This document shows, one piece after another, positions 14,501 to 46,086 of a stretch of 64,000 bases of DNA; positions within the stretch are counted from its first letter, which is position 1, and every line of letters starts with the position of its first letter. Below the pieces are notes generated by a model. The model did not search any database and was not told the DNA's origin. It saw only the letters and a program-made list of their open reading frames with translations. The translations under genes were made by a program, and so were the position numbers. Origin of the DNA: Verrucomicrobiales bacterium (GTDB taxonomy: Bacteria > Verrucomicrobiota > Verrucomicrobiia > Verrucomicrobiales > Akkermansiaceae); assembly GCA_038237425.1 (NCBI GenBank), contig JBBRYQ010000024.1, positions 1,005 through 65,004 of the forward strand. The letters run 5' to 3'.

Positions 14501-16519
14501 CGTGATGTCGCGTGCGGTGGTGGCACTGGAGGCGGTGCCGTTAGTCGTGGAGCGGTAGGTGAAATCTGCGAGTTTGTTGACCGGACCCCAAGTGATGGAG
14601 GCGCTGCGTGCGCCGGTGGCGGTGGATTCGCGGATCATCAGCCCGGCTTTCGCGTTGTAGGCGGTGGGGTCCACGGCGAGGATGCGGGCGGTAATCGTGG
14701 CGTCTCCGGTGATCGATTGGTTAAGGAAATGCGTTTGGTCGGCGGTTCCAGTTAGATTGGAGCCCGATGCTTGCATTACGAATTTTCCGCCGCTGCGGCC
14801 GGCTGTGCCGGAGAAAGATGTGGTGCCGATATCCTGGCTGACCCATGGCGCGGCGAGTGGTTGGAAGAGAAAGAACGAATCGGCATAGGAGGTCTGCGCT
14901 GAGCTGCCACGGAAGGCGAAGATGGACGCGGAGGTGTTAGCGGCTCCGGTGGTGAAATTGACGGTGGCGCGAGTCCATGTATTAGAATTTACGGTGCTGG
15001 TGACTTGGGCTGCTCCGTGGTTTTTTACGCCGAAGGTGAGGCCGGCATTGCCATTGGTGGTCCAGCCGGTGAGGCGGTAGGCGGTGCTTGGGGAGAGACC
15101 GACGACTTCCTGTTCGACACCGGCGCTGGAGCCACTTGCTGGGATTTTCCATGCGTATTCGCCGCCATAATTGTTGCCGTCTTGCGAAATCGTGGCGCCG
15201 CCATAGGTGGAGTTCCAGGCATCGGGCTGGGCGCTTTCGAGTTGGCCGTTATTGGCGGTGGCGTGGCGGCGGAGCAGGAAATCGTCGGCGTAGGCGGTGG
15301 AGCCTGAGTTGGTGGATCGGGCGAAAACTGAGGCCGTGCGGTTGGTGGGGCCGGTGGTAAAAGCGGTGGTGCCTTTGGCGAAGGAGGCGGTGGTGAGGGT
15401 TTCTGAAACCTCGCTGCCGCCATAGCTGTTAGCGCCGATCTTGAGCGCTGGCGAGGTGGTGCCGGCATTACCCCAGGCAGTGACGGTGTAGCCGGTGTCC
15501 GGCATCAGGCCGCGCACGGTCTGTTGGACGGAGGCTCCGGCGGAGGTGGTGGGGGCGAGTTTCGCGGCGGCGGGATCTGTACGGCCGCCGGTGGCGGACC
15601 AGCTTGCTTGGTTGGTGCTGCCGAATGGGCTGAGTCTGCCCTCGAAGTCGCCGTTGACCACGGTTTCGGCGCGCTGATAGACGCGGACGTAATCGACCTC
15701 CATCTTGGTGGTCGTAGTCGCGAGCGTGCCGTAACCTCCCACTGGAACCGCGCTCGACCAACCGCCGTTCTCCACCTCGCTGCTGAAGATGATGAACTCG
15801 CTGCGCTGCGAGACGGGCGAGCCGGTGGCATTATTGATCGTCCAGCGAAGGTTGCCGTCGATGTAGAATTTCTGTTGGGTGGGAGTCCACTCCATGCCGT
15901 AGATGTGGAAGCCGGTGCCGAGGCCGAGGTTTCCGGAATCGTAGCCGTAGCTCTTGTGATCCACGCCGTAGCCGTCCCAGTGGATCACTCCGCCGATGTT
16001 GCCGTCGCGGTTCACAGCGCTGCCATCCACTTTGCGGTGTTCGCAGATGTCGATCTCAGTGCCGGCTGAGTTTGGCGAGCCGATTGGGTTTCCCATGGTG
16101 TCCGACTGCATCCAGAAGGCGGACCACATGCCGGGATTGCTGTCGTAGTTGATGCGAGCCTCGATGTAACCGTAGGTGTATTGATAGGTATTCTGAGTCG
16201 AAATCATCCCCGTGTAGTGGGTGCCGCCGTTGGTGTAGGTGGAAATGATGAGATTTCCGCCGGAGACGGCAACGGCGCTGGGCGAGTTCACGGCATCGCG
16301 GCGAGTTCCAAGCAGCCAATGCCGCCACTTCGCGGTGTCCATGGTGGTGCCGGTGAATTCGTCATTCCAAGCGAGACGCCAGCCAGCACCGGAGGGAGGC
16401 GCGGCGTGGGTGGGAAGGCAGGTGAGAACAAGGAGAACGCAGCAGATGGCGACCGCAAATCCAATGCCGGTCTGGCATCGCCTGATCAACAGGATTCTCG
16501 GTAGCGCGTGGCGTGGCAT
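11522..16519 (-). CDS. 1665-aa secreted modular GH16 protein: GH16 + 2 CBM4/9-like + beta-sandwich + PKD-like + LamG + DNRLRE-like + shared C-terminal module
   Basis: Motifs WNDEFTG, YGYIEARI and EIDICE; two NGDFE/NGQLE-type CBM repeats; LamG (FTLSYWF...WYHIALVF...FDGLIDEVRF); DPDADGLTNLLEWAL; ends RFLRLHLSQ. Confidence 0.85.
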   Translation of the reverse strand: MPRHALPRILLIRRCQTGIGFAVAICCVLLVLTCLPTHAAPPSGAGWRLAWNDEFTGTTMDTAKWRHWLLGTRRDAVNSPSAVAVSGGNLIISTYTNGGTHYTGMISTQNTYQYTYGYIEARINYDSNPGMWSAFWMQSDTMGNPIGSPNSAGTEIDICEHRKVDGSAVNRDGNIGGVIHWDGYGVDHKSYGYDSGNLGLGTGFHIYGMEWTPTQQKFYIDGNLRWTINNATGSPVSQRSEFIIFSSEVENGGWSSAVPVGGYGTLATTTTKMEVDYVRVYQRAETVVNGDFEGRLSPFGSTNQASWSATGGRTDPAAAKLAPTTSAGASVQQTVRGLMPDTGYTVTAWGNAGTTSPALKIGANSYGGSEVSETLTTASFAKGTTAFTTGPTNRTASVFARSTNSGSTAYADDFLLRRHATANNGQLESAQPDAWNSTYGGATISQDGNNYGGEYAWKIPASGSSAGVEQEVVGLSPSTAYRLTGWTTNGNAGLTFGVKNHGAAQVTSTVNSNTWTRATVNFTTGAANTSASIFAFRGSSAQTSYADSFFLFQPLAAPWVSQDIGTTSFSGTAGRSGGKFVMQASGSNLTGTADQTHFLNQSITGDATITARILAVDPTAYNAKAGLMIRESTATGARSASITWGPVNKLADFTYRSTTNGTASSATTARDITDPPWLRLTRRGNIFTAYRSVDGLAWSRVGSPQTIAMTTAALIGIPACSGDTSSLAEIALDNVTVTAAVPDVLITSPAEGVTLSNNGQSLRLTATIAGSGTSTIAWSKVSGPGTVTFANATLADTSATFSAAGTYILRCSATTAAGTGSDDHTINIAPTAAADSTRALRLKLDESSGTTATDSSGNNLNANATGALAWQPNGGALTGAASFNGTDSYLTVPDNSTLDNTAAFTLSYWFYANTLGNNTGLVAKRIGPSDNNSYGTFLGLDGKLYVDINSNNNRFTSTTTFNPGAWYHIALVFNGSLVEAERAKLYVNGVLDKTAPETSTSIPNYTAPLTIGVLAPGGTIFDGLIDEVRFLRRALSAAEITAIDNETGTFAPTVSAGTPPAAIVNTTVSLSGSVTVEAGPAPTAAWTKISGPGNVVFSNASQPATTVSFDQPGDYTLRLTATNANAQTFSEFTDTVFPAVLPLPDLAITNPPAPVFLADTSHTLRLTATPNTHGVPGVPVFLWTQVSGPGTTTIADPSAADTTAIFSIPGAYLLRCSVTTAGGTATADISISVATPASTTFRQGENGYSHDATFLRNDTTTWNSGARDLILIGRKDTAGNLFRSVFSFPLTGVPSSATLTGITLDLWTHDSQAGTGTVSPLELRALNATPVEGTGNSSTDTANGAGTGATWINRTQTLPWTTTGGDYSSTVLSTVPGFNATTLSSLKTFSSTAAFLAATQSSISSGQPLNLILLSPLTESGAAANFTRLASDDHPTAALRPRLTLTWIANPAPTINPGASPAAIHGEPANLSAATTGAVSSNWSLISGPGSATFGNPASPATTVTFDQPGNYVLKLTASNTNGETSRTLAITAALNPAFFAEWQALTWPGITDPAIIDPDRDPDADGLTNLLEWALHLDATTAGTFTPVLTLNGGLLEYIYTRRKVAAGEATFQLEWSDTLADDWSTESVSSENILSQTTTTETIRQTIPMSSSGKRFLRLHLSQ

Positions 16520-23991: not shown

Positions 23992-25065
23992 TTACGGCTC
24001 GTGCTGAGTTTCTTGATTGGTCTCGATGCGCTTTTTGAGACTCATCAGCGCCGCGATTTGCCACTCTTCCAATTTCCCGTCACGGTTCGGACCCACATCG
24101 AGCAATAAATTTCCTCCTGCGCGAATGACCGTGTCGTGATAAAGCTCAAACAATTTGTCGGTTGGTCGCGCCTTGTCCTCAGCCGTCCAGAACCAATCCT
24201 TGCCGATGACATCGCAGTATTCGTAGCCGAGATAATAATTTGTCCCGCGCCACGATTGCGTCGGGCTGAACTGGCCGGGAATCACGTCGCGCTCGCTGTT
24301 CAAAACATCCGTGGGCCATGATTCGGCTTTGGTGCTTTCGATGGTGAATGGTCCAGGAGTCTTCTTATCAAGGAAGCCACAGTTAAACAATACCACGCAG
24401 CCTGGATTTTCCCGGCGCAGTAGTTCATACAACTCCGTGCGCTGTGCCTCGCTCGCGGCGCGGGGAATGTCGAGCCAGTAGTAACGCACAGTGGGATAGT
24501 TCCGCGCAAGCTCTGTCAACTGAGCCTTCGCCAATCCGAAAAAATCATCGGGCAGCAGATACCGTCCCCACTGTTGTTTGTGTTCGACCGAGTTATTGCG
24601 AAAATCCAGAAGGCAATAATACAGCCCCGGCGTGATGTTATATTTTCCACAGGCGTCCACAAATGCTCGCACCACATCGTTCGTATTGCCGCTCGTGGCT
24701 ACGTCGTAATCAAACTCCTTGCCGCGGAATTGTATTTTGCTGTCCCACAAACAATGCCCTGCAACGTGCTTGGACGTGAGAACGGCGTAGTGCATCCCCG
24801 CGTCCTTCGCAACGCGGATCCACTGGTCCACATCAAGATTCTTGGGCGCGTAAGTGGCAGATGGCTGGTCGCCGGGGTCAAGTTCGTTGCCCGTGAACGT
24901 GCTCATGCCGAAATGCAGGAACATGCCGTAGCGCATCTTTTGCCATTCTCGCATCCGTGGTGTCTCGACCCCATCGGGAGATAGGTGGACAGCCGACTCG
25001 CTTCCGACGGCAGATGTCACCAAGCCTGCCACACACGCCACCGCTATTTGAATGAGTTGTTTCAT
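23992..25065 (-). CDS. Secreted GH29 alpha-L-fucosidase-like protein, variant motif KHVAGH
   Basis: The true start is probably ATG 25065 (MKQLIQIAVACVAGLVTSAVGS, a signal peptide). Motifs YGMFLHFGMSTF, TSKHVAGH, YWLDIP, GGNLLLDVGP. Confidence 0.82.
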   Translation of the reverse strand: MKQLIQIAVACVAGLVTSAVGSESAVHLSPDGVETPRMREWQKMRYGMFLHFGMSTFTGNELDPGDQPSATYAPKNLDVDQWIRVAKDAGMHYAVLTSKHVAGHCLWDSKIQFRGKEFDYDVATSGNTNDVVRAFVDACGKYNITPGLYYCLLDFRNNSVEHKQQWGRYLLPDDFFGLAKAQLTELARNYPTVRYYWLDIPRAASEAQRTELYELLRRENPGCVVLFNCGFLDKKTPGPFTIESTKAESWPTDVLNSERDVIPGQFSPTQSWRGTNYYLGYEYCDVIGKDWFWTAEDKARPTDKLFELYHDTVIRAGGNLLLDVGPNRDGKLEEWQIAALMSLKKRIETNQETQHEP

Positions 25066-25104
25066 TTTGTAGACGATGTTAGGTAATGTATGATACAAAT
25101 CTGC

Positions 25105-25257
25105 GATGTTCGAGTTTTGCGTCACCCGACCGTTGAGGATGGTGCTGAGTTGAAGATCATTGGGATTCGGAATCACGTCCGGCGTGACCCAATACGGGCC
25201 GACCGGGCTTAATCTATCGAAGGTTTTCTCGCGACACCGTTGGCCGCTGCCGCGCAT
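25105..25257 (-). pseudogene. Decayed internal fragment of a fumarylacetoacetate-hydrolase (FAH) family gene
   Basis: Translates GQRCREKTFDRLSPVGPYWVTPDVIPNPNDLQLSTILNGRVTQNSNIADL, which matches the FAH-family segment QWxRGKTFDTFxPxGPxxVTPDEIxxPxxLxxxTxxNGxxxQxxNTxDM. Both ends of the gene are absent. Confidence 0.75.
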
Positions 25258-25277: not shown

Positions 25278-25901
25278 TCACTTTGGCAGCAGTGCGAGCA
25301 GATCGTCATGCGGCCTCGCGATGACGTGGGCGGCGATCACCTTGCCCAATGACCCGACGGCTTGTTTCCCGGCGTCGATTGCGGCTGCGACGGCTGCGAC
25401 ATCGCCGCTGATAACGACGGTCACATAGGCGGCTCCGATTTTCTCCTTGCCGACGATTTTGACGTCTGCCGCTTTGAGCATGGCGTCGGTGGCTTCGAGG
25501 ATGGCGGTGAGGCCCTGGGTTTCGAGGATGCCGATGGCTTGTGGTTTCATATTCTTGGGAGCGTTGGGATTGGCGGGGTGATCGGTGGGGAGAAATTGGT
25601 CGCGTCCGCCATAGAGCGGATTGCTGGCGTTGGGAAAGTGGATCATCGGATCAAACCCATCGACTGGCCTTGGGATGGTGCCGGTGACGATGGACTCGAC
25701 GCCGAGTTTCGGGGCAAGAGATTCTGCGGCATCCAGCGCGGCACGGACTTGTGAGATATCGCCCGCCAAGCGGATGAGCACATTTTCATTGCCCGTGGCC
25801 TCGAATCCGAGGATGCGCACATCCGCCGAGTTCGCGGCTTCCTGCGCAAGCATTGCGGAGATGCTGAGGAAAGGAGCTTCGATGAAACCGAGTGACTGCA
25901 T
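25278..25901 (-). CDS. Bacterial microcompartment shell protein with two tandem BMC domains (BMC-T)
   Basis: The C-terminal domain is canonical (AIGILETQGLTAILEATDAMLKAADV...VISGDVAAVAAAIDAG...HVIARPH). The N-terminal domain is a divergent copy (SLGFIE...RLAGDISQVRAALDAA...GTIPRP). Confidence 0.9.
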   Translation of the reverse strand: MQSLGFIEAPFLSISAMLAQEAANSADVRILGFEATGNENVLIRLAGDISQVRAALDAAESLAPKLGVESIVTGTIPRPVDGFDPMIHFPNASNPLYGGRDQFLPTDHPANPNAPKNMKPQAIGILETQGLTAILEATDAMLKAADVKIVGKEKIGAAYVTVVISGDVAAVAAAIDAGKQAVGSLGKVIAAHVIARPHDDLLALLPK

Positions 25902-25907
25902 GGGATA

Positions 25908-26924
25908 CTAACGGTTTTGAGCGACTTCGAGATTTTTCATCACGGCCCGGACGATCGCATCCACATTCATGGGTGATGACGTTGTGCAATCTACGCGGCA
26001 TTCTCCAGCAGCCTCTTCGAACCCGCAACCGGCGAGCACGCATGCGAGTTTGGAGCGCATTTCGGCGATGAGTCCTTGTTCAGCGGGCGAGAGCGGGAAG
26101 CGCGCGTTGCCTGCTTTGAAACCACGGAGTTCGTATCCGGTGCGGAAGCCTTCAGGGAAATTTGGCGCGCCGACCATCAGCGAGAAAAGGTCGAGCAGTT
26201 CAAATTGGATTTGTTTCGCCTTCTCCCAGTTTCCGGCACGGGCGGCATGATAGAGGCTCATCACCACTTCCGGCACGACGCCGGCGCTGGAAAGTGTGCC
26301 GCCGTCCGCGCCCATGAAGAGACCGGTGCAGAGCAGTTCCTCCCAGCCGATGAGCACCGAGAAATCCGGGCGCTGGCGTTTGATGGTGTGGAGTGTCTGT
26401 TGGAAGCGGCCCATGTCCTTGGAGGTGTCCTTGGTGCCGACGATGCGCGGGCAATCCATGGCGAGGCGTTCAAGAACGGGTAGAGAAATTTCGTTCGCGA
26501 AGACCGGGATGTTATAAACCACGATATCGATCGGCGATTTGGCGGCCAGTTCGCGGAAATAGGCCTCGATGCTTTCCTGGGTGAGTTTGTAATAATACGG
26601 GCCGGTGATGGAAACCGCGCGGCAACCGAGGTCCGCGCAATACTTGCACATTTCTAGGACGAGCTCGATGTTCGCCTCGGCGGCACCGGCGAGGATGGGG
26701 CGGCCGTTTGCCTCCTCGCTGACGATGCGCACCACGGTACGGCGTTCCTCGTAGCTCAGGCGGATGAACTCGCCCATGCTGCCATTCGGATAGAATCCGG
26801 TCACGCCCTTGTCTCCCACCCAGCGGATGATGTGGCGGAGCTCGTCCTCATCGATGCGCCCCTTGGCGTCGTAAGGAACGATGTTGGGGACGAAAATACC
26901 GTTGATGGTGGACTGGGAAGCCAT
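25908..26924 (-). CDS. DHDPS/KDG-aldolase family class I aldolase with a C-terminal encapsulation-peptide-like helix; candidate 2-keto-3-deoxy-L-fuconate aldolase
   Basis: Motifs NGSMGEF (GxxGE), VVYNIP (Tyr) and GTKDTS (Schiff-base Lys); C-terminal extension ending NVDAIVRAVMKNL. Substrate is inferred from context only. Confidence 0.8.
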   Translation of the reverse strand: MASQSTINGIFVPNIVPYDAKGRIDEDELRHIIRWVGDKGVTGFYPNGSMGEFIRLSYEERRTVVRIVSEEANGRPILAGAAEANIELVLEMCKYCADLGCRAVSITGPYYYKLTQESIEAYFRELAAKSPIDIVVYNIPVFANEISLPVLERLAMDCPRIVGTKDTSKDMGRFQQTLHTIKRQRPDFSVLIGWEELLCTGLFMGADGGTLSSAGVVPEVVMSLYHAARAGNWEKAKQIQFELLDLFSLMVGAPNFPEGFRTGYELRGFKAGNARFPLSPAEQGLIAEMRSKLACVLAGCGFEEAAGECRVDCTTSSPMNVDAIVRAVMKNLEVAQNR

Positions 26925-26951: not shown

Positions 26952-28172
26952 TCAGAGCAAGTCACAAGATGCGCCTGTTTCCTGGGGAGTGCGATACACG
27001 CCGCCTTCGACACGGCAAGGATGGACGAAGTGCTCGCGGAGGTGTGGGATGTGTTCGAGGAAGATGGCGGGCAGGTCGAGGCCGATGTGGTTGAAGAGCA
27101 CGAGATGCTGGTGGAGCTGGCCCATGTCGCCGACGTGCGGGACGACGGGGACGCCGAACTTTTTGCACATGATGCTGACTGCTAGAAACTCACTCACACC
27201 CGCGACGCGGACGGCATCGACCTGGATGAAGCCGGCGCATTCGACCTGGAGGTAGTTTTTGAAAATGATTCTGTTTGGAACGTGTTCGCCGAGTGCGAGC
27301 TTCACCGGCGCGATGGCATCCGCGAGGGTCTTGTGGCCGATGATGTCGTCCGGGTGGGTGGGCTCTTCGATCCAGAACGGGTTGACTTCCTTGAGTCGGG
27401 CGCAGATGTCGAGGGCTTGGGGAAGCGTCCATTGCTGGTTGGCATCCACCATGATGCGGGCATCCGGTCCGGCGACATCGCGGACGATACGGGCGCGGCG
27501 GAGGTCGCGTTCCGGGTCTTTCGAGCCGACCTTGAGTTTCATGGCGGTGAAGCCGGCGTCCATGGCGCGCTTGCAGTTTTCACGGACTTGTTCGTCGCTG
27601 TAGTTGAACCAACCGACGGAGGTGTCGTAACCGGGGTAGCCGGTTGTTAGGATCCCTTCACGGGAGGCGCGGGTGGCCGTGGGATTTGTTAGCAGCTCGA
27701 CGGCTTGCTCGTGGGTGAGCACGTCTTCGAGGTAGGAAAGATCGAGAGTGGCAGCGACTTGGGCGGGTGTGAGATCTAACAAGAGTTTCCACAATGGCAG
27801 GCCGCGGGTTTTCGCCCAGAGGTCCCAGCAGGCGTTGGTGACGGAAGCGAGTGCGAGCTGGACGACGCCCTTGTGCGGGCCGAGCCAGCGGAATTGTTGT
27901 TCATCGGCCATTTCCTTTTGGAGCGCGCCGAAGTCCGCCATGATTCCCTCGATGCAACGGCCTTGCAGACGTGCTGCATAAAATTCCGCAGCCTTGCAGA
28001 CGAGGTCGTTGCCCTCGCCAAGGGTGAATGCGAGGCCGGAGCCGGTGCGGCCTTTGTCGTCGGTGAGGAGAGTGACGGCGTAGGAATAAATCGGGTCCTT
28101 GTGGATGGCATCGGAGCCGTGGCCGGAGCCGATGGGGTAGCGGACGTCGCGTGTGGAGATGTGGGTGATCAT
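26952..28172 (-). CDS. fucD: L-fuconate dehydratase (enolase superfamily, mandelate-racemase subgroup)
   Basis: Start ATG 28172 (MITHISTRDVRYP...GSDAIHKDPIYSYAV), ATGA-coupled to the upstream GH29. Motifs GPHKGVVQLA, YDTSVGW, KLKVG, MVDANQ, WIEEP, GEH and PHVG are characteristic of FucD/ENOSF1-like enzymes. Confidence 0.82.
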   Translation of the reverse strand: MITHISTRDVRYPIGSGHGSDAIHKDPIYSYAVTLLTDDKGRTGSGLAFTLGEGNDLVCKAAEFYAARLQGRCIEGIMADFGALQKEMADEQQFRWLGPHKGVVQLALASVTNACWDLWAKTRGLPLWKLLLDLTPAQVAATLDLSYLEDVLTHEQAVELLTNPTATRASREGILTTGYPGYDTSVGWFNYSDEQVRENCKRAMDAGFTAMKLKVGSKDPERDLRRARIVRDVAGPDARIMVDANQQWTLPQALDICARLKEVNPFWIEEPTHPDDIIGHKTLADAIAPVKLALGEHVPNRIIFKNYLQVECAGFIQVDAVRVAGVSEFLAVSIMCKKFGVPVVPHVGDMGQLHQHLVLFNHIGLDLPAIFLEHIPHLREHFVHPCRVEGGVYRTPQETGASCDLL

Positions 28173-29827
28173 GGTTTCTTGAGAGAAATTTCGGAAATTG
28201 TCGGGCCGTCGCTGGCGTCGAGAATATTCAGGCGGATGGCGCTGGTGGTGACGGGATCGAAGGAAGCCTTGAAATGCGCGCCGAGGGCATCGCCACTGTG
28301 GAAGGTGGTCCAGGTGGAACCGTCCTGTTTTTGGAGTTCGAATTTTTTCACGCGGCTGGAGTGGCCGGAATAGGCTTCCTCGATGTGGATGCCGTTGATG
28401 GTGGTCGGCTGGGCGAGGTCGATTTGCAGCCAGGATTGTTGGGTGCCTTCCGGAGTGGCCCAACGGGTTTCCACGTCACCATCGAGGACCATATCCGCGC
28501 TGTATTGTGGGTCGTTCTGATAGATTACGGAGGCGGATGCCTTCGCACCGGGGATGCTCGAGCGGGTGGCTGACTTGAGCGGCGCGATGGCCATGGCGTC
28601 TCCAGCGATGGTGAGCTCGACGATGGTGTCGATCGGATCCCACGAGTTGGCGGGGATTTCAAATGAGAGGGAGCCATCGGTAGTGGTGGTTTCGATAGAC
28701 GGACCGTTGAGCAGTTTCGCGGACTTGATGGCGACGGGCAGGGCGGGGACGCTGATAGAGCCATCCATTTTGCTCAGGAGATGAAGATAGATCTTGTCGC
28801 CCATGCGGGTGCTGACCATGGCGGTGGAGGGTTTCCACGGACCACCGCGGGTGCCATACACGGCTTCGCCGTTTTTCGCGAGCCACGCTCCCATTTCCTT
28901 GAGTCGTTCGATCTGGCGTCCTTCGATCTCGCCGGTGGGCTCGGGGCCGACATTGAAGAGTAGGTTGCCATCGCCGCCGTTGGTGCGGATCAGGGTTTGG
29001 ATGCATTCTTCGAGCGACTTCATGGTGTCGTTCGGTTTCCATGCCCATTGATTGCAGATGGTCATGCAGGTTTCCCACGGGCGGTCGATCTGGAAGCCGC
29101 CGATGCGTTGTTCCGGCGTGTCGTAGTCGCCCTTGTGACCAGTGCGGTTGTTGATGACGATGTCCGGCTGGATCGCGCGGGCCATGTTGATCACGCCGGC
29201 ACCGCGCGTGGCGTCGAATTTCTGCGGCACATCGAACCAGAGGCTGAATAGCGGACCGTAGTTGGTTAGAAGCTCGGAAACCTGGGCCTTGAGGTATTTC
29301 GTGTAGGCATCGAGGTCGGATTTTTCACGGACGGTTTTGCCGCCCGGGCTGGTGAGCGGAAAATCCGGGTGGTGCCAATCGCAGGTGGAATAATAGGTGC
29401 CGAAGGCGATGCCGCCTTTTTTACAGGCTGCGGCGAGTTCCTTGACCACGTCCCGCTTGAAGGGCGTGTTCATGATGTTGTAGTCGGTCTGCTTGGTGTC
29501 CCAGAGGCAAAAGCCGTCGTGATGCTTGGTGGTGAGAACGATGTATTTCATGCCAGCCGCCTTGGCGACGGCGACCCATTCGTCGGCGTTGAACTTGCTG
29601 GGATTGAATTGTTTATAAAGGTTGTCGTATTCCTCGATGGGGACTTGGTTGCCGCGGGACCAGCCGATTTCCGTGCCCTTCAAACTAACAGGACCCCAGT
29701 GGATGAACATGCCGAAGCGGGCGTCCTGCCAGTTCTTGACTGCGGCGGGTGCGGCGGGAATGACGTCCTGTGCAAATAGCGGGGTACTGCACAAAAGGGA
29801 CGCGAGAACGAAGTGGGATAGTTTCAT
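28169..29827 (-). CDS. Secreted alpha-L-fucosidase (GH29) with C-terminal F5/8-type C domain
   Basis: ATG 29827 (MKLSHFVLASLLCSTPLFA); motifs FGMFIHWG, TTKHHDGF, LWFDVP, WETCMT, GNLLFNVGP. Confidence 0.92.
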   Translation of the reverse strand: MKLSHFVLASLLCSTPLFAQDVIPAAPAAVKNWQDARFGMFIHWGPVSLKGTEIGWSRGNQVPIEEYDNLYKQFNPSKFNADEWVAVAKAAGMKYIVLTTKHHDGFCLWDTKQTDYNIMNTPFKRDVVKELAAACKKGGIAFGTYYSTCDWHHPDFPLTSPGGKTVREKSDLDAYTKYLKAQVSELLTNYGPLFSLWFDVPQKFDATRGAGVINMARAIQPDIVINNRTGHKGDYDTPEQRIGGFQIDRPWETCMTICNQWAWKPNDTMKSLEECIQTLIRTNGGDGNLLFNVGPEPTGEIEGRQIERLKEMGAWLAKNGEAVYGTRGGPWKPSTAMVSTRMGDKIYLHLLSKMDGSISVPALPVAIKSAKLLNGPSIETTTTDGSLSFEIPANSWDPIDTIVELTIAGDAMAIAPLKSATRSSIPGAKASASVIYQNDPQYSADMVLDGDVETRWATPEGTQQSWLQIDLAQPTTINGIHIEEAYSGHSSRVKKFELQKQDGSTWTTFHSGDALGAHFKASFDPVTTSAIRLNILDASDGPTISEISLKKP

Positions 29828-29846
29828 ATAGGATTCAGTTAGACGT

Positions 29847-30608
29847 TTAGCGGCGGTAGCCGATTTCCGCGCCACCGGAGACGTGCATGATGTGGCCGGT
29901 GACGAAGCGGGCCTTGGATGAGATGAGGAAAACGCAGGCATCGGCGATGACATCGCCCTCCGGGCAATAGCCGAGCGGGTGGATGTCATCGAGATATTGT
30001 GAGATGCCGACGGGGTCCGGTTGCTCGGACGCCCAGGTGCGGAGCATGGGGGTCCAGGTGCCGGCGGGGCAGACGGCGTTCACGCGGATGCCGTCCTTGG
30101 CGTAGTCGAGCGCCATCGATTTGGTGAGGGTGTTCATGCCGCCCTTGGTGGCGGTGTAAGCGGCGTGGATTTCCTGACCGATGACACCGACGAGCGAGGA
30201 GGTGTTGAGGATGCAGCCTTTGGTTTCACGGAGTGCTTGAATGCCGTGGCGGGTGGTGTGGAGCACGCTTTTTAGATTGATATGAAAAAGGGAGTCCCAT
30301 TCATCATCGCTGGTTTCGTGGAGCGGTTTGCTGGGGGTGGCGATGCCGGCGTTGTTGTGGATGGCGGTGATTTTTCCGTAGCGGGCGAGCACCCGGTCGA
30401 TGGCGGATTTGACATCGGCGTCTTTGGAAACATCACAGGCAAAACCGATATGATCGGGGCCGAGGTCGGCGGCGGCTTGGGCGGAGAGATCGCCATTGCG
30501 GGCGACCAGCGCGACCGTGGCTCCCTCAGCAACATAGGCCTTGGCGCAATCGAGGCCGATGCCGGTGGAGCCGCCGGTGAGGAAGATAACTTGGTCTTGG
30601 AGGAGCAT
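29847..30608 (-). CDS. SDR-family oxidoreductase, candidate L-fucose dehydrogenase
   Basis: Motifs TGGSTGIG, NNAGI, YTATKGG (YxxxK) and RVNAVCP. Function is inferred from its position between the mutarotase and the fuconate dehydratase. Confidence 0.8.
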   Translation of the reverse strand: MLLQDQVIFLTGGSTGIGLDCAKAYVAEGATVALVARNGDLSAQAAADLGPDHIGFACDVSKDADVKSAIDRVLARYGKITAIHNNAGIATPSKPLHETSDDEWDSLFHINLKSVLHTTRHGIQALRETKGCILNTSSLVGVIGQEIHAAYTATKGGMNTLTKSMALDYAKDGIRVNAVCPAGTWTPMLRTWASEQPDPVGISQYLDDIHPLGYCPEGDVIADACVFLISSKARFVTGHIMHVSGGAEIGYRR

Positions 30609-30723: not shown

Positions 30724-31125
30724 TCATTCAAGATGATAGAGCTCCTTGGTATCGGACCAGACCTTTCCAGCCTTGAGGGCGTCGGGAAGTGGGGACTGGC
30801 AGGGGTCGGTTTCCTTCCACCAACGCTTGGTTTCCGGGTCTTCGCCCATTTTTTTCATGTCGGCGGCGAAGTCCTTGCCGGTGTATTCGAGGTAGGCGAA
30901 GAGATAGGTTTTTCCGGCGATTTCGCGCTCGTAGATCGAGAAATTGCGGATGTTGCAGGCTTTTAAATTGGCGTTAACGGATGGCCAGGGATTAGCGTGG
31001 AGCTTGCGGTAATATTCGGCTTTCTGTGGCTTGAGGCCGGTGACCCAGGCGTGGCGCTGGACTTGGGTGGGCGCACAGCTTGCGGCGAGGGCTGCTAGAA
31101 CGAGGCAGAGGATGAAATTTTTCAT
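30724..31125 (-). CDS. RhaM-family (L-rhamnose/L-fucose) mutarotase with a predicted lipoprotein signal peptide
   Basis: LKPQKAEYYRKLHANPWPSV...NIRNFSIY...LFAYLEY...RWW is the RhaM signature. The N-terminus is MKNFILCLVLAALAASC. Confidence 0.85.
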   Translation of the reverse strand: MKNFILCLVLAALAASCAPTQVQRHAWVTGLKPQKAEYYRKLHANPWPSVNANLKACNIRNFSIYEREIAGKTYLFAYLEYTGKDFAADMKKMGEDPETKRWWKETDPCQSPLPDALKAGKVWSDTKELYHLE

Positions 31126-31143: not shown

Positions 31144-33075
31144 TCAATGGAATACGATGTAGAGCACAGTCATTGAGCCGATGACGATGCCGGCGAGCAC
31201 CTTGTAGTTGAGGATGCCTGACCAACCGGGGGCTTTCAGGGCGTCGAGCGGATGAGGCCAGTAGAGCGCCTGCACGTCTTCACCGGCGAGTTTCGGTTGG
31301 AGCTTGGTGAAGGTGATCTGGAGCACGAGGCAGGCGACGAACATATAGAATGCCATCATCATGAACGGGGTAGTTACGAAGAACGCGGGCACCCAGGCGA
31401 AGGTGGTGGGGAAGCCTTCGTTGAGGGCTTTGAGCGCGTAAATGCTCACCCCGAGCACGGAGCCGAGCCACATGGTCCACTTCGCACCGCGGGCCGAGGC
31501 GGCAGGCCAAAATACGCCTAGCAGGAAGACGCAGGTGATGGGCGGTGCCATGTGAGCGATGATCTCGTTGAGCGCGTTGAAGATGCTGGCCTTGCGGTCT
31601 AGCAGCGGGACGAGCGCGATGCCGAAGGCGATAGATGACAGCGTGGCGACGCGGCCGATGAAGACGAGCTGCTTGTCACTGGTGGCGGGGCGGAAACGTT
31701 TGACGATGTCATAACTGACCATGGTGGCAATCGAGTTCGAGGCGCTGGATAGATTTCCCATCAGCGCGGCCATCAGCGCGGCGGCGAGAAGACCGAGCAC
31801 ACCGACGGGCAGCAGCTTTTTGATCATGACGGCATACACTTCCTTCGATTTGTAGGGGCGGATTCCTGCGGAAGCGGGGATGGTTTCTCCGGCGTCGGTC
31901 GTCACGATTTTCACCGGTACGTCGGGGCCGATGATGAGGGAAGAGTCCTTGCTAGTGGGCTTGATGGCGAGCTGGGAGAGATCGATGGTTTCGCCTTCCT
32001 TGAGGCGGATCGGTTCGATTTTCGTGCCACCAACGTCACCGGTGACGGCGATGATTTTCTCCTTGCCACCATCTGGCAAGGTGACGGTCTGTATTAAGCG
32101 AAGTTGGGTGACTCCTTCGAGGTTTCCTTGCTTGACGGCGGTGTAAAGCATCAGGCCGGGGACGATGAAGATGAAGACGGGGAGGATCTTGATGAGACCA
32201 CAGAAGATCGAGCCGACGCGGGCGTCGTTCTCGGTCTTCGCGCCGAGCACGCGCTGGACGATGGTTTGGTCCGCGCACCAATACCAGATGCCGAGCACGG
32301 GGTAGCCTAGCAGAATGGAATACCAGGGCATGCCGCTGTCGTCGCCGTGAGGGCGGAGCATCCTCATGAGCTTGCCATCGGTGATGCCTTGGGCGGCGGC
32401 GTTGGCGGTGTCGAGCGTGGCGGTCATGCCCTCCCAGCCGCCTGTTTTATGCCAGGCGAACCAGGTGATAACGAAGGCACCTAGCAGAAGCACGATGGTC
32501 TGGATCGTCTCGGTGATGGCCACAGCAGCGAGTCCGCCGACCACGGTGTAGATGCCGGTGAGGGCGCACATGAGAAAGATACAGGTCCATTTCTCGATGC
32601 CGAAAATGTCGTGTAGGATGAGCCAGCCGGTGGCGAGCGGGAAGGCGATGTGGAAGATGATCGCGGCGACGATGGAAACGACGGCGAGCAGATCGCGGCA
32701 TTCGCGGCAGTAACGTTTTTCTAGGAAATCCGGCAGGGTGGCGACCTTGGATTTCAGATAGAATGGCGCGAAGAAGAAGCCGAGCAGGATCAGGGTGAAG
32801 GCGGCCATCCACTCGAAGTTACCGTTGAGCAGGCCGGTATCGTAGCCGGACTGGGCGAGGGAGACGAGGTGGACGCAGGAGATGTTGGTGGCGAAGAGCG
32901 CGAGGCCGATGACCGGCCATTTCAGGGTGTGCGCGGCCATGAAGTAATCGCCAGCGACGGACTCACCCTGTTGCTGGCCTTTTTTCTTGGCGTTCATGCC
33001 GGCCCAACAACCGAGACCTACGACTCCGGCGAGGTAAATGATGACGATGGTCCAATCGAGGATACTAATTTGCAT
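31144..33075 (-). CDS. Sodium:solute symporter (SSS family), candidate L-fucose importer
   Basis: Start ATG 33075 (MQISILDWTIVIIYL); motifs GDYFMAAH, LFATNIS, WYWCADQTIVQRVLGA, AALMAALM; multiple TM helices. Confidence 0.9.
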   Translation of the reverse strand: MQISILDWTIVIIYLAGVVGLGCWAGMNAKKKGQQQGESVAGDYFMAAHTLKWPVIGLALFATNISCVHLVSLAQSGYDTGLLNGNFEWMAAFTLILLGFFFAPFYLKSKVATLPDFLEKRYCRECRDLLAVVSIVAAIIFHIAFPLATGWLILHDIFGIEKWTCIFLMCALTGIYTVVGGLAAVAITETIQTIVLLLGAFVITWFAWHKTGGWEGMTATLDTANAAAQGITDGKLMRMLRPHGDDSGMPWYSILLGYPVLGIWYWCADQTIVQRVLGAKTENDARVGSIFCGLIKILPVFIFIVPGLMLYTAVKQGNLEGVTQLRLIQTVTLPDGGKEKIIAVTGDVGGTKIEPIRLKEGETIDLSQLAIKPTSKDSSLIIGPDVPVKIVTTDAGETIPASAGIRPYKSKEVYAVMIKKLLPVGVLGLLAAALMAALMGNLSSASNSIATMVSYDIVKRFRPATSDKQLVFIGRVATLSSIAFGIALVPLLDRKASIFNALNEIIAHMAPPITCVFLLGVFWPAASARGAKWTMWLGSVLGVSIYALKALNEGFPTTFAWVPAFFVTTPFMMMAFYMFVACLVLQITFTKLQPKLAGEDVQALYWPHPLDALKAPGWSGILNYKVLAGIVIGSMTVLYIVFH

Positions 33076-33149
33076 GGGTTGTGTTGTGATCGGTTCGTTT
33101 GAGGAGAACCTTACGCCGACGATGGGGAAATGTTGCGACCCGGTCTTGC

Positions 33150-33172
33150 AATATCCTTCGGCGAAGGATATT
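33150..33172. promoter_or_regulatory. Perfect 11-bp inverted repeat in the divergent SSS/AraC intergenic region; candidate operator or hairpin
   Basis: AATATCCTTCG-G-CGAAGGATATT, ending 9 nt before the AraC ATG. Confidence 0.5.
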
Positions 33173-33181
33173 ACACATTCC

Positions 33182-34219
33182 ATGAAGACCGCATTGCCAT
33201 CTCCGATCTATCAGAGTGGTGTGGATCTCTTTGAAATTGACGATTGTGGGCCTCAATTCAAGGCGGTCCGTGACGGAAAGATCGAATTGCACGCGCTTTC
33301 GAAAGGGCACTATCCGGGAAAACGAATGAATTCAAACATTCTTCCGGGTTTGACGAACATCGGATTCTGGAATTGCCGCGGCTCCCAGGATTGGGGCTTG
33401 GACGCCCACCGGAACGAGGGATTGGAGATCGTTTATCTCGAAACCGGCGGAATGGGCTTCGAGGTGGACGGACGGGCTCATGCATTGCAGGCGGGGAATC
33501 TAACGGTCACCCGGCCATGGCAGCTTCACAAGCTGGGAGATCCTCATATCGGTCGCGGACGGTTGTCGTGGTTGATCTTGGATGTCGGGGTGAGGCGGCC
33601 GAATCAGGAGTGGACCTGGCCTTCTTGGGTGGTTTTGTCGCCCAAGGATTTGGCGGAGTTGACGCGGAAACTGCGGCATGGAGAGCAATCCGTGTGGCTG
33701 GCGAATCCGCGGATGCGGGAGGTGTTCCGGGATCTCGGCGATTGCGTGGTGCGCTGGAACGAACCCCGCGTGGGCTCGCGGCTGGCAGTTGCGGTGAATC
33801 GACTGTTAGTGGAGCTGCTCGACGTGCTCGCCGAGCAGCAGCTCGTGGAGTCCCCGTCATTGGTGACGCGTCGGCGCACGGTGGAGCTTTTTCTCAACGA
33901 TCTGGTAGAGAACCCGGCGAGCTGCGCGGAGCCATGGACACTCGAAGGAATGGCGGCGCAGTGTGGCATGGGGATCACGGCGATGGCGAAGTATTGCAGG
34001 GAGTTGGTAAATATCGGTCCCGTGGCCTTCCTGAACCAGTGCCGGCTGGACCATGCGGCGAGGGGGCTGAGGGAAAAGCCGCGCGTCACCATCACTGAAA
34101 TCGCCATGAGTGTGGGATTCAATTCCAGCCAATACTTTGCAACGTTGTTTCGGAAACGCCACAAGCTGACTCCGATGCACTATCGAGCCCGGTCTCAGGA
34201 GCTCACTTCTGCGCGTTAG
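33182..34219 (+). CDS. AraC-family transcriptional regulator, divergent from the fucose block
   Basis: ATG 33182; cupin-like AHRNEGLEIVYL; double HTH with ITEIAMSVGFNSSQYFATLFRK. Confidence 0.92.
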   Translation: MKTALPSPIYQSGVDLFEIDDCGPQFKAVRDGKIELHALSKGHYPGKRMNSNILPGLTNIGFWNCRGSQDWGLDAHRNEGLEIVYLETGGMGFEVDGRAHALQAGNLTVTRPWQLHKLGDPHIGRGRLSWLILDVGVRRPNQEWTWPSWVVLSPKDLAELTRKLRHGEQSVWLANPRMREVFRDLGDCVVRWNEPRVGSRLAVAVNRLLVELLDVLAEQQLVESPSLVTRRRTVELFLNDLVENPASCAEPWTLEGMAAQCGMGITAMAKYCRELVNIGPVAFLNQCRLDHAARGLREKPRVTITEIAMSVGFNSSQYFATLFRKRHKLTPMHYRARSQELTSAR

Positions 34220-38049: not shown

Positions 38050-40620
38050 ATGAAACTCCGCATCAATCCATTCCTCTGTAGCGCTATCAGTCTCTTGTTT
38101 GTTGTGTCATCTCACGCCGCCAGCTTCTCATGGGATGGCACCAGCACGGGGACAGGCGCTCAAGGCGGTGTAGGAACCTGGGATTCCAACACCACCGCCA
38201 ACTGGTGGAACGGCACCACCAATGTGGTATGGCCAGCCTCCGGCACGGATAATGATGCGGTCTTCGGTGCTACTGCTGGCGCAGTTGCCGTCTCCGGAAC
38301 CGTGACAGTTAACGACATGTCCATTGCGACAGGCTACACCATTGGTGCGGACAACACGATAGGCAAGATCATCCTCAATGGCACCACTCCGACCATTACG
38401 ACTACAGGCTCAGGCGGCACTGCGAACATCGGTGCAATTATTGACGGCTCCGCAGGTCTCACCACAACGGGACCAGTCACCGTCCAACTTCGGGGGGCGA
38501 ACATCTACACCGGTGATACCCGGGTGTTGAATGGCACACTTTTAATCGGCCTCGGCAACAACCGATTGCCCACCGGGACGACGCTTATTCTGGGAGATAG
38601 CGTGGCAAACACCAGTGGCGTGTTTCAGATGAACTCACGCAGCCAGCAAGTGGCCGGCTTGCAATCTGTTGGCAGCGGCACAGGCAATCGCGTCATCAAT
38701 GGCAACGTTACCGCCAGCACCTTCACCGTCAGCAACACCACGGACCAGACATTCGGCGGAATTCTTGGTGGCACCGGGAGCAATCATAACAACTTCCTCC
38801 TGACAAAATCTGGCGCTGCAAATTTGGTTCTCACCAATACAAACACTTACACAGGTGCTACTTCGGTCTCCGTTGGCACGCTGACTTTGGCGAAGAATAA
38901 CACGCTCAGCCAATACACCAATGTCTCCATTTCCGCTGCCGCGACTCTTGCGTTGCGCACGGGTGATGGCACCACTGGATGGAGTGAGGCGCAAATTGAT
39001 ACGCTCCGTGGCACCTCTGGATTTTCCCTCGCGGCGGGATCGTTTTTGGGATTTGACACATCCACCAACGGGGATTTCACCTACAGCACAAGCATCAGCG
39101 GCAGTCCCACCTATGGATTGAGCAAGCTTGGGGCAGGCACACTTACAATTTCCGGCACAAACACCTACACGGGCACCACGGCTATCAAGAACGGGAGCCT
39201 CGCACTGACCGGCGGTAATGACCGCCTACTGACTACAGGTTCAGTCGTGCTCGGAGATGTGTCCACTGCTGGAAAGCTCATCCTTGGTGATGCGACTACC
39301 GCGAGAGACCAAACCCTTGCGGGCCTCACCGTCACTGGCACGGGTGGCAGCGTGGTGGGCGCGGCGGTCGCGAATTCAGTTCTCACCCTGAACAATGCCA
39401 GTGGCACCAATACATTCGCCGGCAAATTGGGGGGAACCGGGCTGAACGAAAATAAACTCGCCTTAACCAAGGACGGAGCAGGCACGCTCGCGCTCTCCGG
39501 CGACAACTCATTCACGGGGGATGTCACGGTGAGCGCTGGTAGGCTCGCGATTTCCCACTCCAACGCCCTCGGCACCGGCACGAAAAACTTCTTCATGCAA
39601 GGAGGGAGCCGGGTGTTCGAGATTTCCAATAACATCACGCTCGGCAGCAACATCACATTGAATGCTTCCACCAACTCCGGTGATGGCTTAGGTATTGTGA
39701 GCAGCAGCGGCACCAATGAAATTCAGGGACAAATCAACATCACGACTGGAAACGGAGTTCTTAACGTTTCCAGCACTGCCGGTACTCTGACATTGTCTGG
39801 AAATGTCACAGCGACCACGACCGGGAGAGCTTTGATCCTCGGCGGTGCATCAGCGAATGCCAACACCGTCAGCGGGATCATCAGCAATGGCGGCACACCC
39901 AACATGCCCGTCACCAAGCAGGGCGCTGGTAAGTGGGTGCTCTCCAAAGCAAACACTTACAGCGGCGACACCACCATCACAGGAGGCACACTTGCTCTCA
40001 GTGGCAGCGGCTCCATCGCTAACAGCGCGAATATCGCCGTCGCTTCGGGTGCCACTTTCGATGTGAGCACGGTCACGAGCGGCAATTGGTCCTTGGGATC
40101 CACTCAGAAACTCACCGGCAGCGGCGGGCTGACGGGGGCCACCACCATCAGTGGCACCCACAATGCGGGGGATGCCGCTACGAATGCGGGCGTTGGCTCA
40201 CAAGCATTTTCTAGCAGCCTGTCCTATGCGAATGGGTCCATTTTCGAATGGGATCTGAATGCGAGTTCCACGAGCAGCGGTTTCGACACGGTGTCCGCAG
40301 TCGGCGCAATTGGCGTGGGCACCACGAGCACTGTATTCAAGGTCCTCTTCGGCGCCACCGCCCTTGCCGACGTGCAGAACAGCGGGAATACCTTCTGGAA
40401 CACGCCCTTTGTTACCCGTGTCTGGAATATGAGCGATGTCTTTGGTAAAGCGTTTACCTCAGGTGCCTTCCAAAGTGTAGCGACCAGCTCCGATGTTTCC
40501 ACCTACGGCTCTTTCACCATCACCAGCAGCACCCTCACCTGGACCGCCGTGCCCGAGCCCACCAGTGCCTTGGCCGGTCTTCTAATCACCGCTGGCCTGC
40601 TGCGCCGGCGCCGGGCTTGA
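38050..40620 (+). CDS. PEP-CTERM surface protein with autotransporter-associated beta-strand repeats
   Basis: Repeats LTKSGAANLVLTNTNTYTGAT, LSKLGAGTLTISGTNTYTGTT, LTKDGAGTLALSGDNSFTG and VTKQGAGKWVLSKANTYSGDT. C-terminus is AVPEPTSALAGLLITAGLLRRRRA. Confidence 0.92.
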   Translation: MKLRINPFLCSAISLLFVVSSHAASFSWDGTSTGTGAQGGVGTWDSNTTANWWNGTTNVVWPASGTDNDAVFGATAGAVAVSGTVTVNDMSIATGYTIGADNTIGKIILNGTTPTITTTGSGGTANIGAIIDGSAGLTTTGPVTVQLRGANIYTGDTRVLNGTLLIGLGNNRLPTGTTLILGDSVANTSGVFQMNSRSQQVAGLQSVGSGTGNRVINGNVTASTFTVSNTTDQTFGGILGGTGSNHNNFLLTKSGAANLVLTNTNTYTGATSVSVGTLTLAKNNTLSQYTNVSISAAATLALRTGDGTTGWSEAQIDTLRGTSGFSLAAGSFLGFDTSTNGDFTYSTSISGSPTYGLSKLGAGTLTISGTNTYTGTTAIKNGSLALTGGNDRLLTTGSVVLGDVSTAGKLILGDATTARDQTLAGLTVTGTGGSVVGAAVANSVLTLNNASGTNTFAGKLGGTGLNENKLALTKDGAGTLALSGDNSFTGDVTVSAGRLAISHSNALGTGTKNFFMQGGSRVFEISNNITLGSNITLNASTNSGDGLGIVSSSGTNEIQGQINITTGNGVLNVSSTAGTLTLSGNVTATTTGRALILGGASANANTVSGIISNGGTPNMPVTKQGAGKWVLSKANTYSGDTTITGGTLALSGSGSIANSANIAVASGATFDVSTVTSGNWSLGSTQKLTGSGGLTGATTISGTHNAGDAATNAGVGSQAFSSSLSYANGSIFEWDLNASSTSSGFDTVSAVGAIGVGTTSTVFKVLFGATALADVQNSGNTFWNTPFVTRVWNMSDVFGKAFTSGAFQSVATSSDVSTYGSFTITSSTLTWTAVPEPTSALAGLLITAGLLRRRRA

Positions 40621-45109: not shown

Positions 45110-46086
45110 CGCGCCACCACCGGCACGCCGTTTTTCCACTCGATCACCACCTTGGAAAGATACCATGTCTTGCCGGTGTCGTTGTTTCCCTGATAGAACA
45201 AGTGGGTCTTTCCATCCTCATCGTTGAAAACTCCCGGGTGGCCGGATTCCGATGAGTTCCATGACCCCGGTAGGCCGTTAGGAAGCAGTGGCTTGTCAGA
45301 CACCCGCGTCCAATGAATGCCATCCGTAGAGGACGCCACGCCGATCTGCTGAGGCTCGTTGTTATAGCCGCCTGCGTAAAACATCCATAGCTTGCCGTCG
45401 CGTTGCATGATGGATGCAGCCTCGATGCATTTGGTTTCCCACGGCAGCTCCGGCTTTAAAATCGGACCATCCACCAGCTGCGTCCATTGTTTCCTGCCGT
45501 AGTCCGAGTCTAGCGGCGCCGATGCCACGCCCTGCATCTGGATCTTCATCTCGGGATCGCGTGTCGCGAAATATAGATATAACTTGTCACCCACCGGAAA
45601 GACCTCCGCATCGATCGCCCGGCCGACGGTCCACGCCCCGCTTGGCGCGAATATAGGATTCTCCAGATTGCGGGTGAAATTAATCCCATCGGTGGACCAC
45701 GCGTGGCAGATCGCATCTTTGGGGCCGTTGCCGTATGTCTGATAGAAAAGATGCACCTTGCCGCCATGGACCCACGCGGCCGGGGCGGCGAGGCCCTTTT
45801 TATCACACTCCTGCGCGGGGCCGACGACCCCCGCCTTTTCCCAATGCACCAAGTCCTTGCTCTTCGCGATTCCGACGCTCCAGCCACCCATACCAGTGGC
45901 CGGCCCAGGCAGCGAATAATACATGAGATACTCCCCGCCGAATCGAATCACCGAGGGGTCCTTGGAAAACGGCCGCCCGCTCGATTCATCCGCCCAGTGC
46001 ATTTCCGGAAGCTTCATAGCTTCCGCCGCAGCGGCCCAGCCGGAAAGAATGGCAAATAACGGAAACAGGACGCGGATTGGATTCAT
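45106..46086 (-). CDS. Secreted five-bladed beta-propeller glycosidase (GH43/GH32-like)
   Basis: Start probably ATG 46086 (MNPIRVLFPLFAILSGWAAAA); blade motifs KDPSVI, AAPAAW, IDAEVF, IEAASI, SGHPGV. Confidence 0.78.
   Translation of the reverse strand: MNPIRVLFPLFAILSGWAAAAEAMKLPEMHWADESSGRPFSKDPSVIRFGGEYLMYYSLPGPATGMGGWSVGIAKSKDLVHWEKAGVVGPAQECDKKGLAAPAAWVHGGKVHLFYQTYGNGPKDAICHAWSTDGINFTRNLENPIFAPSGAWTVGRAIDAEVFPVGDKLYLYFATRDPEMKIQMQGVASAPLDSDYGRKQWTQLVDGPILKPELPWETKCIEAASIMQRDGKLWMFYAGGYNNEPQQIGVASSTDGIHWTRVSDKPLLPNGLPGSWNSSESGHPGVFNDEDGKTHLFYQGNNDTGKTWYLSKVVIEWKNGVPVVAR

Follow-up and report, generated by a model that had tools for sequence, protein, structure and literature searches.

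A putative C-terminal encapsulation peptide on a DHDPS-family class I aldolase suggests an additional cargo enzyme for a PVM-type bacterial microcompartment

The class I aldolase described here is encoded on a 64,000-nt stretch of DNA (hereafter "the window", meaning the whole stretch analysed). We read its last 37 residues as an encapsulation peptide, consisting of a flexible linker and a 17-residue amphipathic helix, which would make the aldolase a lumen cargo of a PVM-type microcompartment (estimated probability roughly 0.78). Among the Verrucomicrobiota and Planctomycetota that break down fucose-rich algal and mucin glycans, PVM microcompartments are common, and the sole entry point into this organelle described to our knowledge is the phosphorylated route via a class II aldolase. 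The genes and protein segments considered below are listed in Table 1.

Table 1. Features of the aldolase operon and of the aldolase C-terminal tail in the window
Feature	Position	Strand	Evidence
BMC-T shell protein (207 aa) with tandem BMC domains and without cysteine	25278..25901	-	PF00936 matched twice
DHDPS/NAL-family class I aldolase, 338 aa	25908..26924	-	PF00701, E 9e-52, 176 bits
Amphipathic helix, aldolase residues 321-337 (VDAIVRAVMKNLEVAQN), candidate encapsulation peptide	25914..25964	-	AlphaFold2, hydrophobic stripe
Poorly conserved linker, aldolase residues 302-320 (FEEAAGECRVDCTTSSPMN)	25965..26021	-	Column identity, composition, AlphaFold2 coil
L-fuconate dehydratase orthologue, 427 aa	26952..28235	-	PDB 1yey/2hxt, E ~1e-103, full length
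GH29 alpha-L-fucosidase with F5/8 type C domain, inside operon	28169..29989	-	PF01120, E 3e-87
SDR dehydrogenase, candidate L-fucose 1-dehydrogenase	29847..30608	-	PF13561/PF00106
RhaM-family deoxy-sugar mutarotase	30724..31125	-	PF05336, E 3e-25
Sodium:solute symporter, true start probably later	31144..33183	-	PF00474
Divergent AraC-family regulator	33038..34219	+	PF12833

The Pfam DHDPS profile (PF00701) spans aldolase residues 8-289, and the protein has the TIM-barrel fold plus C-terminal helical domain that characterize this family. Among solved structures, KDG aldolase and YagE come closest to it, and Foldseek comparisons to YagE, DHDPS, and NanA returned a probability of 1.0 with TM-scores of 0.6-0.76. 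K165 (the Schiff-base lysine, in G-T-K-D), Y137 (in V-Y-N-I-P), and the G-S-x-G-E motif all line up with KDG aldolase and YagE. Since K165, Y137, and the motif residues G48, S49, G51, and E52 are invariant in 45 aldolase homologues, the protein looks like an active class I aldolase. When aligned to solved homologues, the family fold stops near residue 301, and none of ~130 such structures (KDG aldolase, YagE, NanA, DapA; 290-305 residues) aligns past approximately this point.

Beyond the fold, the aldolase reads FEEAAGECRVDCTTSSPMN-VDAIVRAVMKNLEVAQN-R, so that the protein ends in ...CGFEEAAGECRVDCTTSSPMNVDAIVRAVMKNLEVAQNR followed by the stop codon, with M319-R338 and this stop codon encoded at positions 25908-25970. 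In an AlphaFold2 model built from 45 sequences (medium quality, mean pLDDT of 74), the last helix of the family domain ends at residue 299, residues 306-320 form a low-confidence coil (pLDDT <50 at 313-318), and a tail helix is predicted at 321-337 with a pLDDT of ~80. The hydrophobic stripe of this helix includes residues 321, 324, 325, 328, 329, and 332, i.e., positions i, i+3, i+4, i+7, i+8, and i+11, and the hydrophobic moment of its 12-residue core is 0.59, compared to 0.33 +/- 0.16 when the same peptides are shuffled. An earlier note on this DNA had proposed a terminal amphipathic helix behind a linker, which both the model and the hydrophobic moment support, although two of its details required correction. 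The extension comprises ~37 residues (302-338) instead of ~45, because helix 280-299 is still part of the C-terminal helical domain of the family, and the protein does not end at K-N-L but continues for six further residues (EVAQNR).

Among the best 120 database homologues (72-95% identity; 331-378 aa except for two shorter, probably partial entries), the tail was present in every one inspected. Homologues with the tail also occur in relatives of Haloferula, Luteolibacter, and Lentimonas. We pooled the database homologues with 45 loci from GTDB species genomes that bear the tail, yielding 145 distinct tails, 143 of which retained the motif [VIL][DE]x[IL]Vxx[VI][LMIV]xx[LIM] after a linker that varies in length, which argues that the conserved tail is not a product of chance. 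One variant tail, ending in LAESIDQTVSAVVQRMRA (locus L071, genome G033), falls outside this strict pattern. Mean per-column pairwise identity was 0.81 across the domain, 0.15 in the linker (residues 310-320), and 0.41 in the helix, within which the stripe positions were essentially always aliphatic or Met while the intervening positions varied. The linker between the invariant C309 and the helix ranged from 9 to 19 residues. In clusters built at 50% identity, near relatives below ~50% identity were mostly 300-320 aa long and tail-less, one cluster at 53% identity carried a tail, and one distant cluster (32%) displayed an independent-looking tail of the same kind. An apparent aldolase-BMC-T fusion (562 aa, L035) and two loci with long ORFs (L040 and L049) were rejected, as the reading had run past a stop codon.

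Encapsulation peptides are described as terminal helices of 15-20 residues, predicted to be amphipathic and separated from the enzyme domain by a poorly conserved linker (Aussignargues 2015, PMC4594438). They are confined to microcompartment-associated homologues, and those of different enzymes share common properties rather than a common sequence (PMC4594438). We used this definition (Kinney 2012; Aussignargues 2015) to evaluate the aldolase tail. Its amphipathic helix lies at the terminus, and the poorly conserved linker that precedes it is rich in Gly, Ala, Ser, and Pro. By composition, such peptides are expected to be about a third aliphatic and about 40% charged or polar, with almost no aromatic, Pro, or Cys residues; the tail helix has 39% ILV, 0.4% aromatic (FWY), 36% charged/polar (KRDEQN), 15% Gly/Ala/Ser, 0% Cys, and 1.2% Pro, against 34, 0.7, 38, 15, 0, and 0 in the same order for the class II "Aldolase" encapsulation-peptide row of Table 2 in PMC4594438. 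Similarly, the linker composition (10% ILV, 34% Gly/Ala/Ser, 34% charged/polar, 12% Pro) agrees with the published aldolase linker row (PMC4594438). Along with its distribution, described below, the tail thus displays, as far as sequence can tell, every property by which a microcompartment encapsulation peptide is defined, and the encapsulation-peptide pattern proposed in the earlier note stands when judged by helix, linker, composition, and distribution. A profile HMM of 142 tail helices, run on the complete set of 36,878 open frames in the source genome, detected the aldolase alone as significant (E 5e-6), and none of the other cargo peptides of that genome scored. The likeness of the tail to these peptides is therefore one of properties and not of homology, and since sequence-homology scoring was uninformative here, the property-based definition was used instead. 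As a side observation, a tail profile that finds only its own enzyme accords with the prediction from PMC4594438.

We evaluated the distribution of the tail relative to shell genes in a phylum sample of 401 Verrucomicrobiota genomes, using the shell pentamer (BMC-P, PF03319) as a marker. BMC-P genes were detected in 84 of these genomes (21%), while aldolase homologues at E <= 1e-60 were found in 11, including eight with the tail, and all eight tail-bearing genomes encoded PF03319. A tail-bearing homologue was present in 45 GTDB species genomes, of which 44 encoded PF03319. The lone exception, a MAG labelled Hydrogenedentota, is probably misbinned, as an Opitutales MAG belonging to the same sample series has an aldolase and neighbouring genes that cannot be told apart from those on the contig in question. 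In a maximum-likelihood tree of catalytic domains, all tail-bearing sequences grouped in one clade (support 100/100), separate from the tail-less relatives (37-45% identity) found in Planctomycetota and Verrucomicrobiota. Since these tail-less relatives are also found in shell-encoding genomes, shell genes do not require the tail. Two tail-less sequences fell within the tail clade, namely a frameshifted second copy (L027) and the homologue from genome G249 (Opitutia bacterium UBA4506, 99% complete), the sole intact tail-less member of the clade; no PF03319 or PF00936 was detected in that genome. The sister sequence (59% identical) comes from G033, a genome of the same genus in which both tail and shell genes are present. 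By sequence, an apparent loss of the tail alongside a loss of shells is exactly what the encapsulation hypothesis predicts, but it comes from a single genome pair, and across 11 genomes of the G249 family and a GTDB-wide scan we found no further tail-less clade members in shell-less genomes. Hence the tail is present with microcompartments and absent without them, the absent side being represented by one genome. The earlier note had contrasted a tail restricted to microcompartment-encoding genomes with one common in homologues from genomes lacking them, and the distribution observed corresponds to the former. Its claim of "direct sequence evidence" for a lumen-targeted cargo can be retained for the cargo reading, which both conservation and distribution favour, but not for "direct", as this evidence is comparative and indirect.

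A C-terminal helix may alternatively serve the enzyme itself, in oligomer formation, stability, or regulation, with the link to microcompartments reflecting shared Verrucomicrobiota ancestry. DHDPS-family enzymes indeed form tetramers, and their C-terminal helical domains vary. Related genomes do not count as independent samples, and the contrast of loss with loss is one pair. We nevertheless consider this explanation very improbable, given a prevalence of shell genes in tail-bearing genomes far above the 21% background, a helix composition in line with published encapsulation peptides, and the lack of any comparable extension in the ~130 solved homologues. In addition, the helix is parted from the fold by a non-conserved, length-variable linker rich in Pro, Ser, and Gly, which would be unusual for an interface element.

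If the tail is an encapsulation peptide, the source genome (5.4 Mb, 96% complete) offers a clear candidate organelle. Another contig (C16; locus L009) carries a complete PVM-type microcompartment locus with a PduL-type phosphotransacylase (PF06130), three BMC-H (PF00936), an acetate kinase (AckA, PF00871), three BMC-P (PF03319), an aldehyde dehydrogenase (PF00171), and a class II aldolase (PF00596), along with a DeoR regulator identified by reading the ORF translation. This gene set includes all components by which PVM-type loci are recognized, i.e., BMC-H, a BMC-P triplet, aldehyde dehydrogenase, PTAC, class II aldolase, acetate kinase, and DeoR. Two of the C16 enzymes bear peptide helices of their own: an N-terminal one on the aldehyde dehydrogenase (L..VV..VV..L, starting with MKTLDPETLRSVVESVVSRLAAS and followed by an (AP)n linker), and a C-terminal one on the class II aldolase (ending in ...SSSSASAKLDPEAEKLVQMLTEQILAAVK). 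The sole shell gene of the window is the BMC-T, while the main locus lies on the other contig, at least ~55 kb away, which makes the window a satellite locus as Sutter et al. use the term. The toxic intermediate that the PVM organelle handles is lactaldehyde (PMC4207490, PMC8857213), and the C16 aldehyde dehydrogenase would consume the predicted product of the window aldolase.

The BMC-T gene starts 6 nt past the aldolase stop, a spacing already reported in the earlier note and confirmed here by the gene boundaries. In 33 of 45 tail-bearing related loci, BMC-T is the gene that immediately follows the aldolase, usually with the same 6-nt gap, and this gene order is shared by members of Verrucomicrobiales, Opitutales, and Chthoniobacterales. 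Only four genomes of the phylum sample had full-length BMC-T orthologues (at least 54% identity), always adjoining the aldolase, while four other tail-bearing genomes had no BMC-T orthologue, and the tails are alike whether or not a BMC-T tile adjoins. On this comparison, the tile appears to accompany the aldolase as an accessory and not to act as the specific receptor of the peptide. These data also bear on the possibility that the helix serves to dock the aldolase to the shell, e.g., to BMC-T, at the outside or at a pore, with lactaldehyde passed in and the enzyme itself not lumenal. Both the 6-nt spacing and the confinement of the BMC-T orthologue to the side of the aldolase would be expected under such docking, and sequence alone is blind to the side of the shell that is bound. 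However, with half of the tail-bearing sample genomes lacking the tile and yet encoding similar tails, the peptide is unlikely to be specific for it, and all peptides of this type tested in the literature covered send their cargo inward (PMC4594438), so that we regard external docking as improbable.

The genes encoding the dehydratase, GH29 fucosidase, SDR dehydrogenase, mutarotase, and symporter all share the strand of the aldolase and lie upstream of it, and four GH29 fucosidases were counted in the operon, three of them downstream. No terminal extension was found on the neighbouring L-fuconate dehydratase when one was looked for. The SDR scored 157 bits against the NCBIfam L-fucose dehydrogenase model, which is under the cut-off, and its nearest solved structure is HSD17B14. 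From this operon context, the aldolase is probably an L-2-keto-3-deoxyfuconate (L-KDF) aldolase, and we infer L-KDF as its substrate and pyruvate and L-lactaldehyde as its products, as reported for L-KDF aldolases (PMC11199699). The source genome also encodes an L-fucose isomerase and an L-rhamnose isomerase, which indicates that the oxidative fucose route is an addition to the phosphorylated route and not a replacement.

The tail may also be an encapsulation peptide on an enzyme with another 2-keto-3-deoxy sugar acid as substrate, such as L-2-keto-3-deoxyrhamnonate or a pentonate. None of the NCBIfam equivalogs compared to the aldolase attains its cut-off, and public databases name its homologues 2-dehydro-3-deoxy-D-pentonate aldolase or DapA. 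Moreover, a fuconate dehydratase was found upstream of the aldolase in ~14 related loci with enough flanking sequence, and in many other related loci the aldolase and BMC-T pair occurs in different neighbourhoods. In the window, however, the immediate neighbour is a full-length L-fuconate dehydratase orthologue in an operon rich in GH29 fucosidases, and we consider a different substrate for this particular enzyme unlikely, although less so than either external docking or a role of the helix in the enzyme itself. Even a rhamnose analogue would leave the organelle logic unchanged, as it would also give lactaldehyde.

Under the encapsulation reading with L-KDF as substrate, a cytosolic mutarotase, dehydrogenase, and L-fuconate dehydratase would convert L-fucose to L-KDF. 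The tail helix of the aldolase would bind shell proteins, or co-aggregate with the peptide-bearing aldehyde dehydrogenase, PduL, and class II aldolase, and the aldolase oligomer would thereby be packed into the lumen of the C16-encoded PVM-type microcompartment. L-KDF would then cross into the shell and be cleaved there to pyruvate and L-lactaldehyde, with the toxic aldehyde subsequently handled by the encapsulated CoA-acylating aldehyde dehydrogenase, PduL, and acetate kinase. The presumably co-transcribed BMC-T tile would be an optional add-on, probably tuning the permeability of the shell to the new substrate and product. A bolder proposal, which we offer only tentatively and hold to be somewhat less than an even bet, is that the tailed aldolase and BMC-T form a portable two-gene plug-in that adds a second PVM signature enzyme of unrelated fold, with the BMC-T acting as a matching pore for 2-keto-3-deoxyfuconate and pyruvate. 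Such an organelle would also take in a sugar acid that is not phosphorylated.

If encapsulation of the aldolase is correct, a second and little-described lactaldehyde-releasing route would operate inside the fucose/rhamnose organelle, and one shell would serve two signature enzymes. Models of carbon flow and lactaldehyde detoxification in PVM organisms would then change to include a second aldolase and an oxidative route, and the peptide and tile would represent a compact natural pair for engineered cargo loading. The plug-in, if real, would be a natural case of a two-gene cassette widening the substrate range of a microcompartment.

Among known systems, a class II aldolase with a C-terminal peptide is the signature enzyme of PVM microcompartments (PMC8217296, PMC4207490, PMC4594438). 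The peptide of this PVM/GRM5 enzyme (PF00596; Erbilgin 2014; PMC4594438) is, like the tail described here, a ~17-residue C-terminal helix behind a poorly conserved linker; both are borne by a lactaldehyde-releasing enzyme (predicted, for the window aldolase), occur in the same genomes, and belong to the same composition class. The two enzymes nevertheless differ in fold and mechanism, with the class II aldolase being a metal enzyme and the window aldolase a class I Schiff-base TIM barrel, as well as in co-product, which is DHAP for the former and, from a non-phosphorylated sugar acid, would be pyruvate for the latter. The peptide sequences also differ, with a hydrophobic spacing of V..IV..VM..L in the window tail versus LV..L...IL..V in the class II aldolase. 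In addition, the 9-19-residue linker after C309 is shorter than the 23-81 residues reported for class II aldolases, and the tailed aldolase, unlike the class II enzyme, is encoded outside of the main PVM locus. PduP-type aldehyde dehydrogenase and PduL peptides display a similar pattern, and the N-terminus of the aldehyde dehydrogenase (L..VV..VV..L) is the closest peptide by pattern in the source genome. PduP-type peptides are however N-terminal, whereas the aldolase tail is C-terminal, and the profile search detected no sequence homology between them. Another encapsulated signature enzyme with a terminal extension is the DeoC-family class I aldolase (DERA) of SPU microcompartments (PMC11585597), which differs from the window aldolase by its family (PF01791), N-terminal extension, phosphorylated substrate, and acetaldehyde product.

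The arrangement of the window also has precedents. According to the text of the Sutter 2021 catalogue, EutABC and EutL modules beside HO/SPU loci likewise combine a distal aldehyde-forming enzyme with one trimeric shell protein, and this satellite is read there as functionally extending the main microcompartment (PMC8217296), although enzyme, substrate, and host microcompartment type (PVM for the window) all differ. The same text assigns a BMC-T clade named "T_pvm" to main or satellite loci and, its PVM satellite figure aside, gives no PF00701 aldolase for PVM (PMC8217296), while a supplement mentions a PF00701 aldolase near MUF2 loci. FucH, an L-KDF aldolase that resembles the window aldolase in predicted reaction and position downstream of L-fuconate dehydratase, is likened to it here by description only, and in the portions of text covered, characterised L-KDF aldolases are described as cytosolic and from anaerobes, with no link to microcompartments. 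In the literature searched (the PVM satellite figure of the catalogue aside), we found no description of a DHDPS-family aldolase that bears a C-terminal encapsulation peptide and serves as PVM cargo, nor of any oxidative fucose route feeding a microcompartment. Overall, both the type of signal and the organelle are already known from these systems, and it is the proposed cargo enzyme and its entry route that are new.

Two of the aldolase loci in related GTDB genomes, L039 and L038, could not be told apart in their aldolase, C-terminal tail (the linker and amphipathic helix that form the candidate encapsulation peptide) and neighbouring genes, and they come from two MAGs of one sample series that were assigned to separate phyla, Hydrogenedentota and Opitutales. 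Because the Hydrogenedentota MAG is also the sole tail-bearing genome without PF03319 pentamer shell genes, its aldolase contig is probably misbinned. A second aldolase copy, on a 5-kb contig (locus L027) in the same MAG as locus L020, shows 96% identity as far as residue 302 and from there continues into a different short end, CGRRREHRMERVV; this altered end could come from a frameshift or a misassembly, or could be strain variation.

For the L-fuconate dehydratase encoded next to the window's aldolase, alignment with the solved enzyme fixes the start codon; the GH29 (alpha-L-fucosidase) reading frame runs 65 nt past it, giving an overlap between two genes read in different frames (see table). 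Beside the BMC-T shell gene, a listed ORF joins a fragment of an FAH-family hydrolase to a fucosidase whose true start (MKQLIQ...) lies near 25065. The fragment finds its top family match in 2,4-didehydro-3-deoxy-L-rhamnonate hydrolase, spanning positions 167-220 of 284, and lacks the N-terminal half. It may be a remnant of the oxidative pathway's dehydrogenase-plus-hydrolase branch. Elsewhere in the window lie several ORFs of very large size, 1622-2542 aa. One of them has PATR autotransporter-type repeats, and proteins with N-terminal methylation motifs are encoded nearby.

Features of the aldolase region and of the wider window
Feature	Window position	Strand	Remark
Aldolase residues 295 and 309	about 25998-26042	-	invariant cysteines
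FAH-family hydrolase fragment, 63 aa	25068-25257	-	between BMC-T and next GH29 gene
Listed ORF	23992-25257		FAH-family fragment joined to fucosidase
Dehydratase/GH29 overlap	28169-28235		different frames
Very large ORFs	11522-16519, 38050-40620, 45923-63763		

Within the aldolase, C295 and C309, two cysteines that lie on either side of the point where the fold ends, were invariant in an alignment of 45 tail-bearing homologues, and published class II aldolase linkers are likewise unusually Cys-rich (5.5%; PMC4594438). A Cys-rich linker was also found in a distant DHDPS-family member (P0277, a database cluster representative; 390 aa, 32% identity), the C-terminal end of which, EAIKSIVDETVKRIKDNR, is of the same helix type as the tail of the window's aldolase, which hints at more than one origin of such tails within the family. 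Another DHDPS-family aldolase (P0246, likewise a database cluster representative; 400 aa, 44% identity) carries an N-terminal extension of ~85 aa, with a weak likeness to the N-terminus of the class II aldolase of PVM microcompartments (31% over 74 aa, E 0.41) and the motif G..LTPSA.D..R common to both. This extension is reminiscent of the PF00701 aldolase with an N-terminal domain near MUF2 loci that is mentioned in the Sutter 2021 microcompartment catalogue (PMC8217296).
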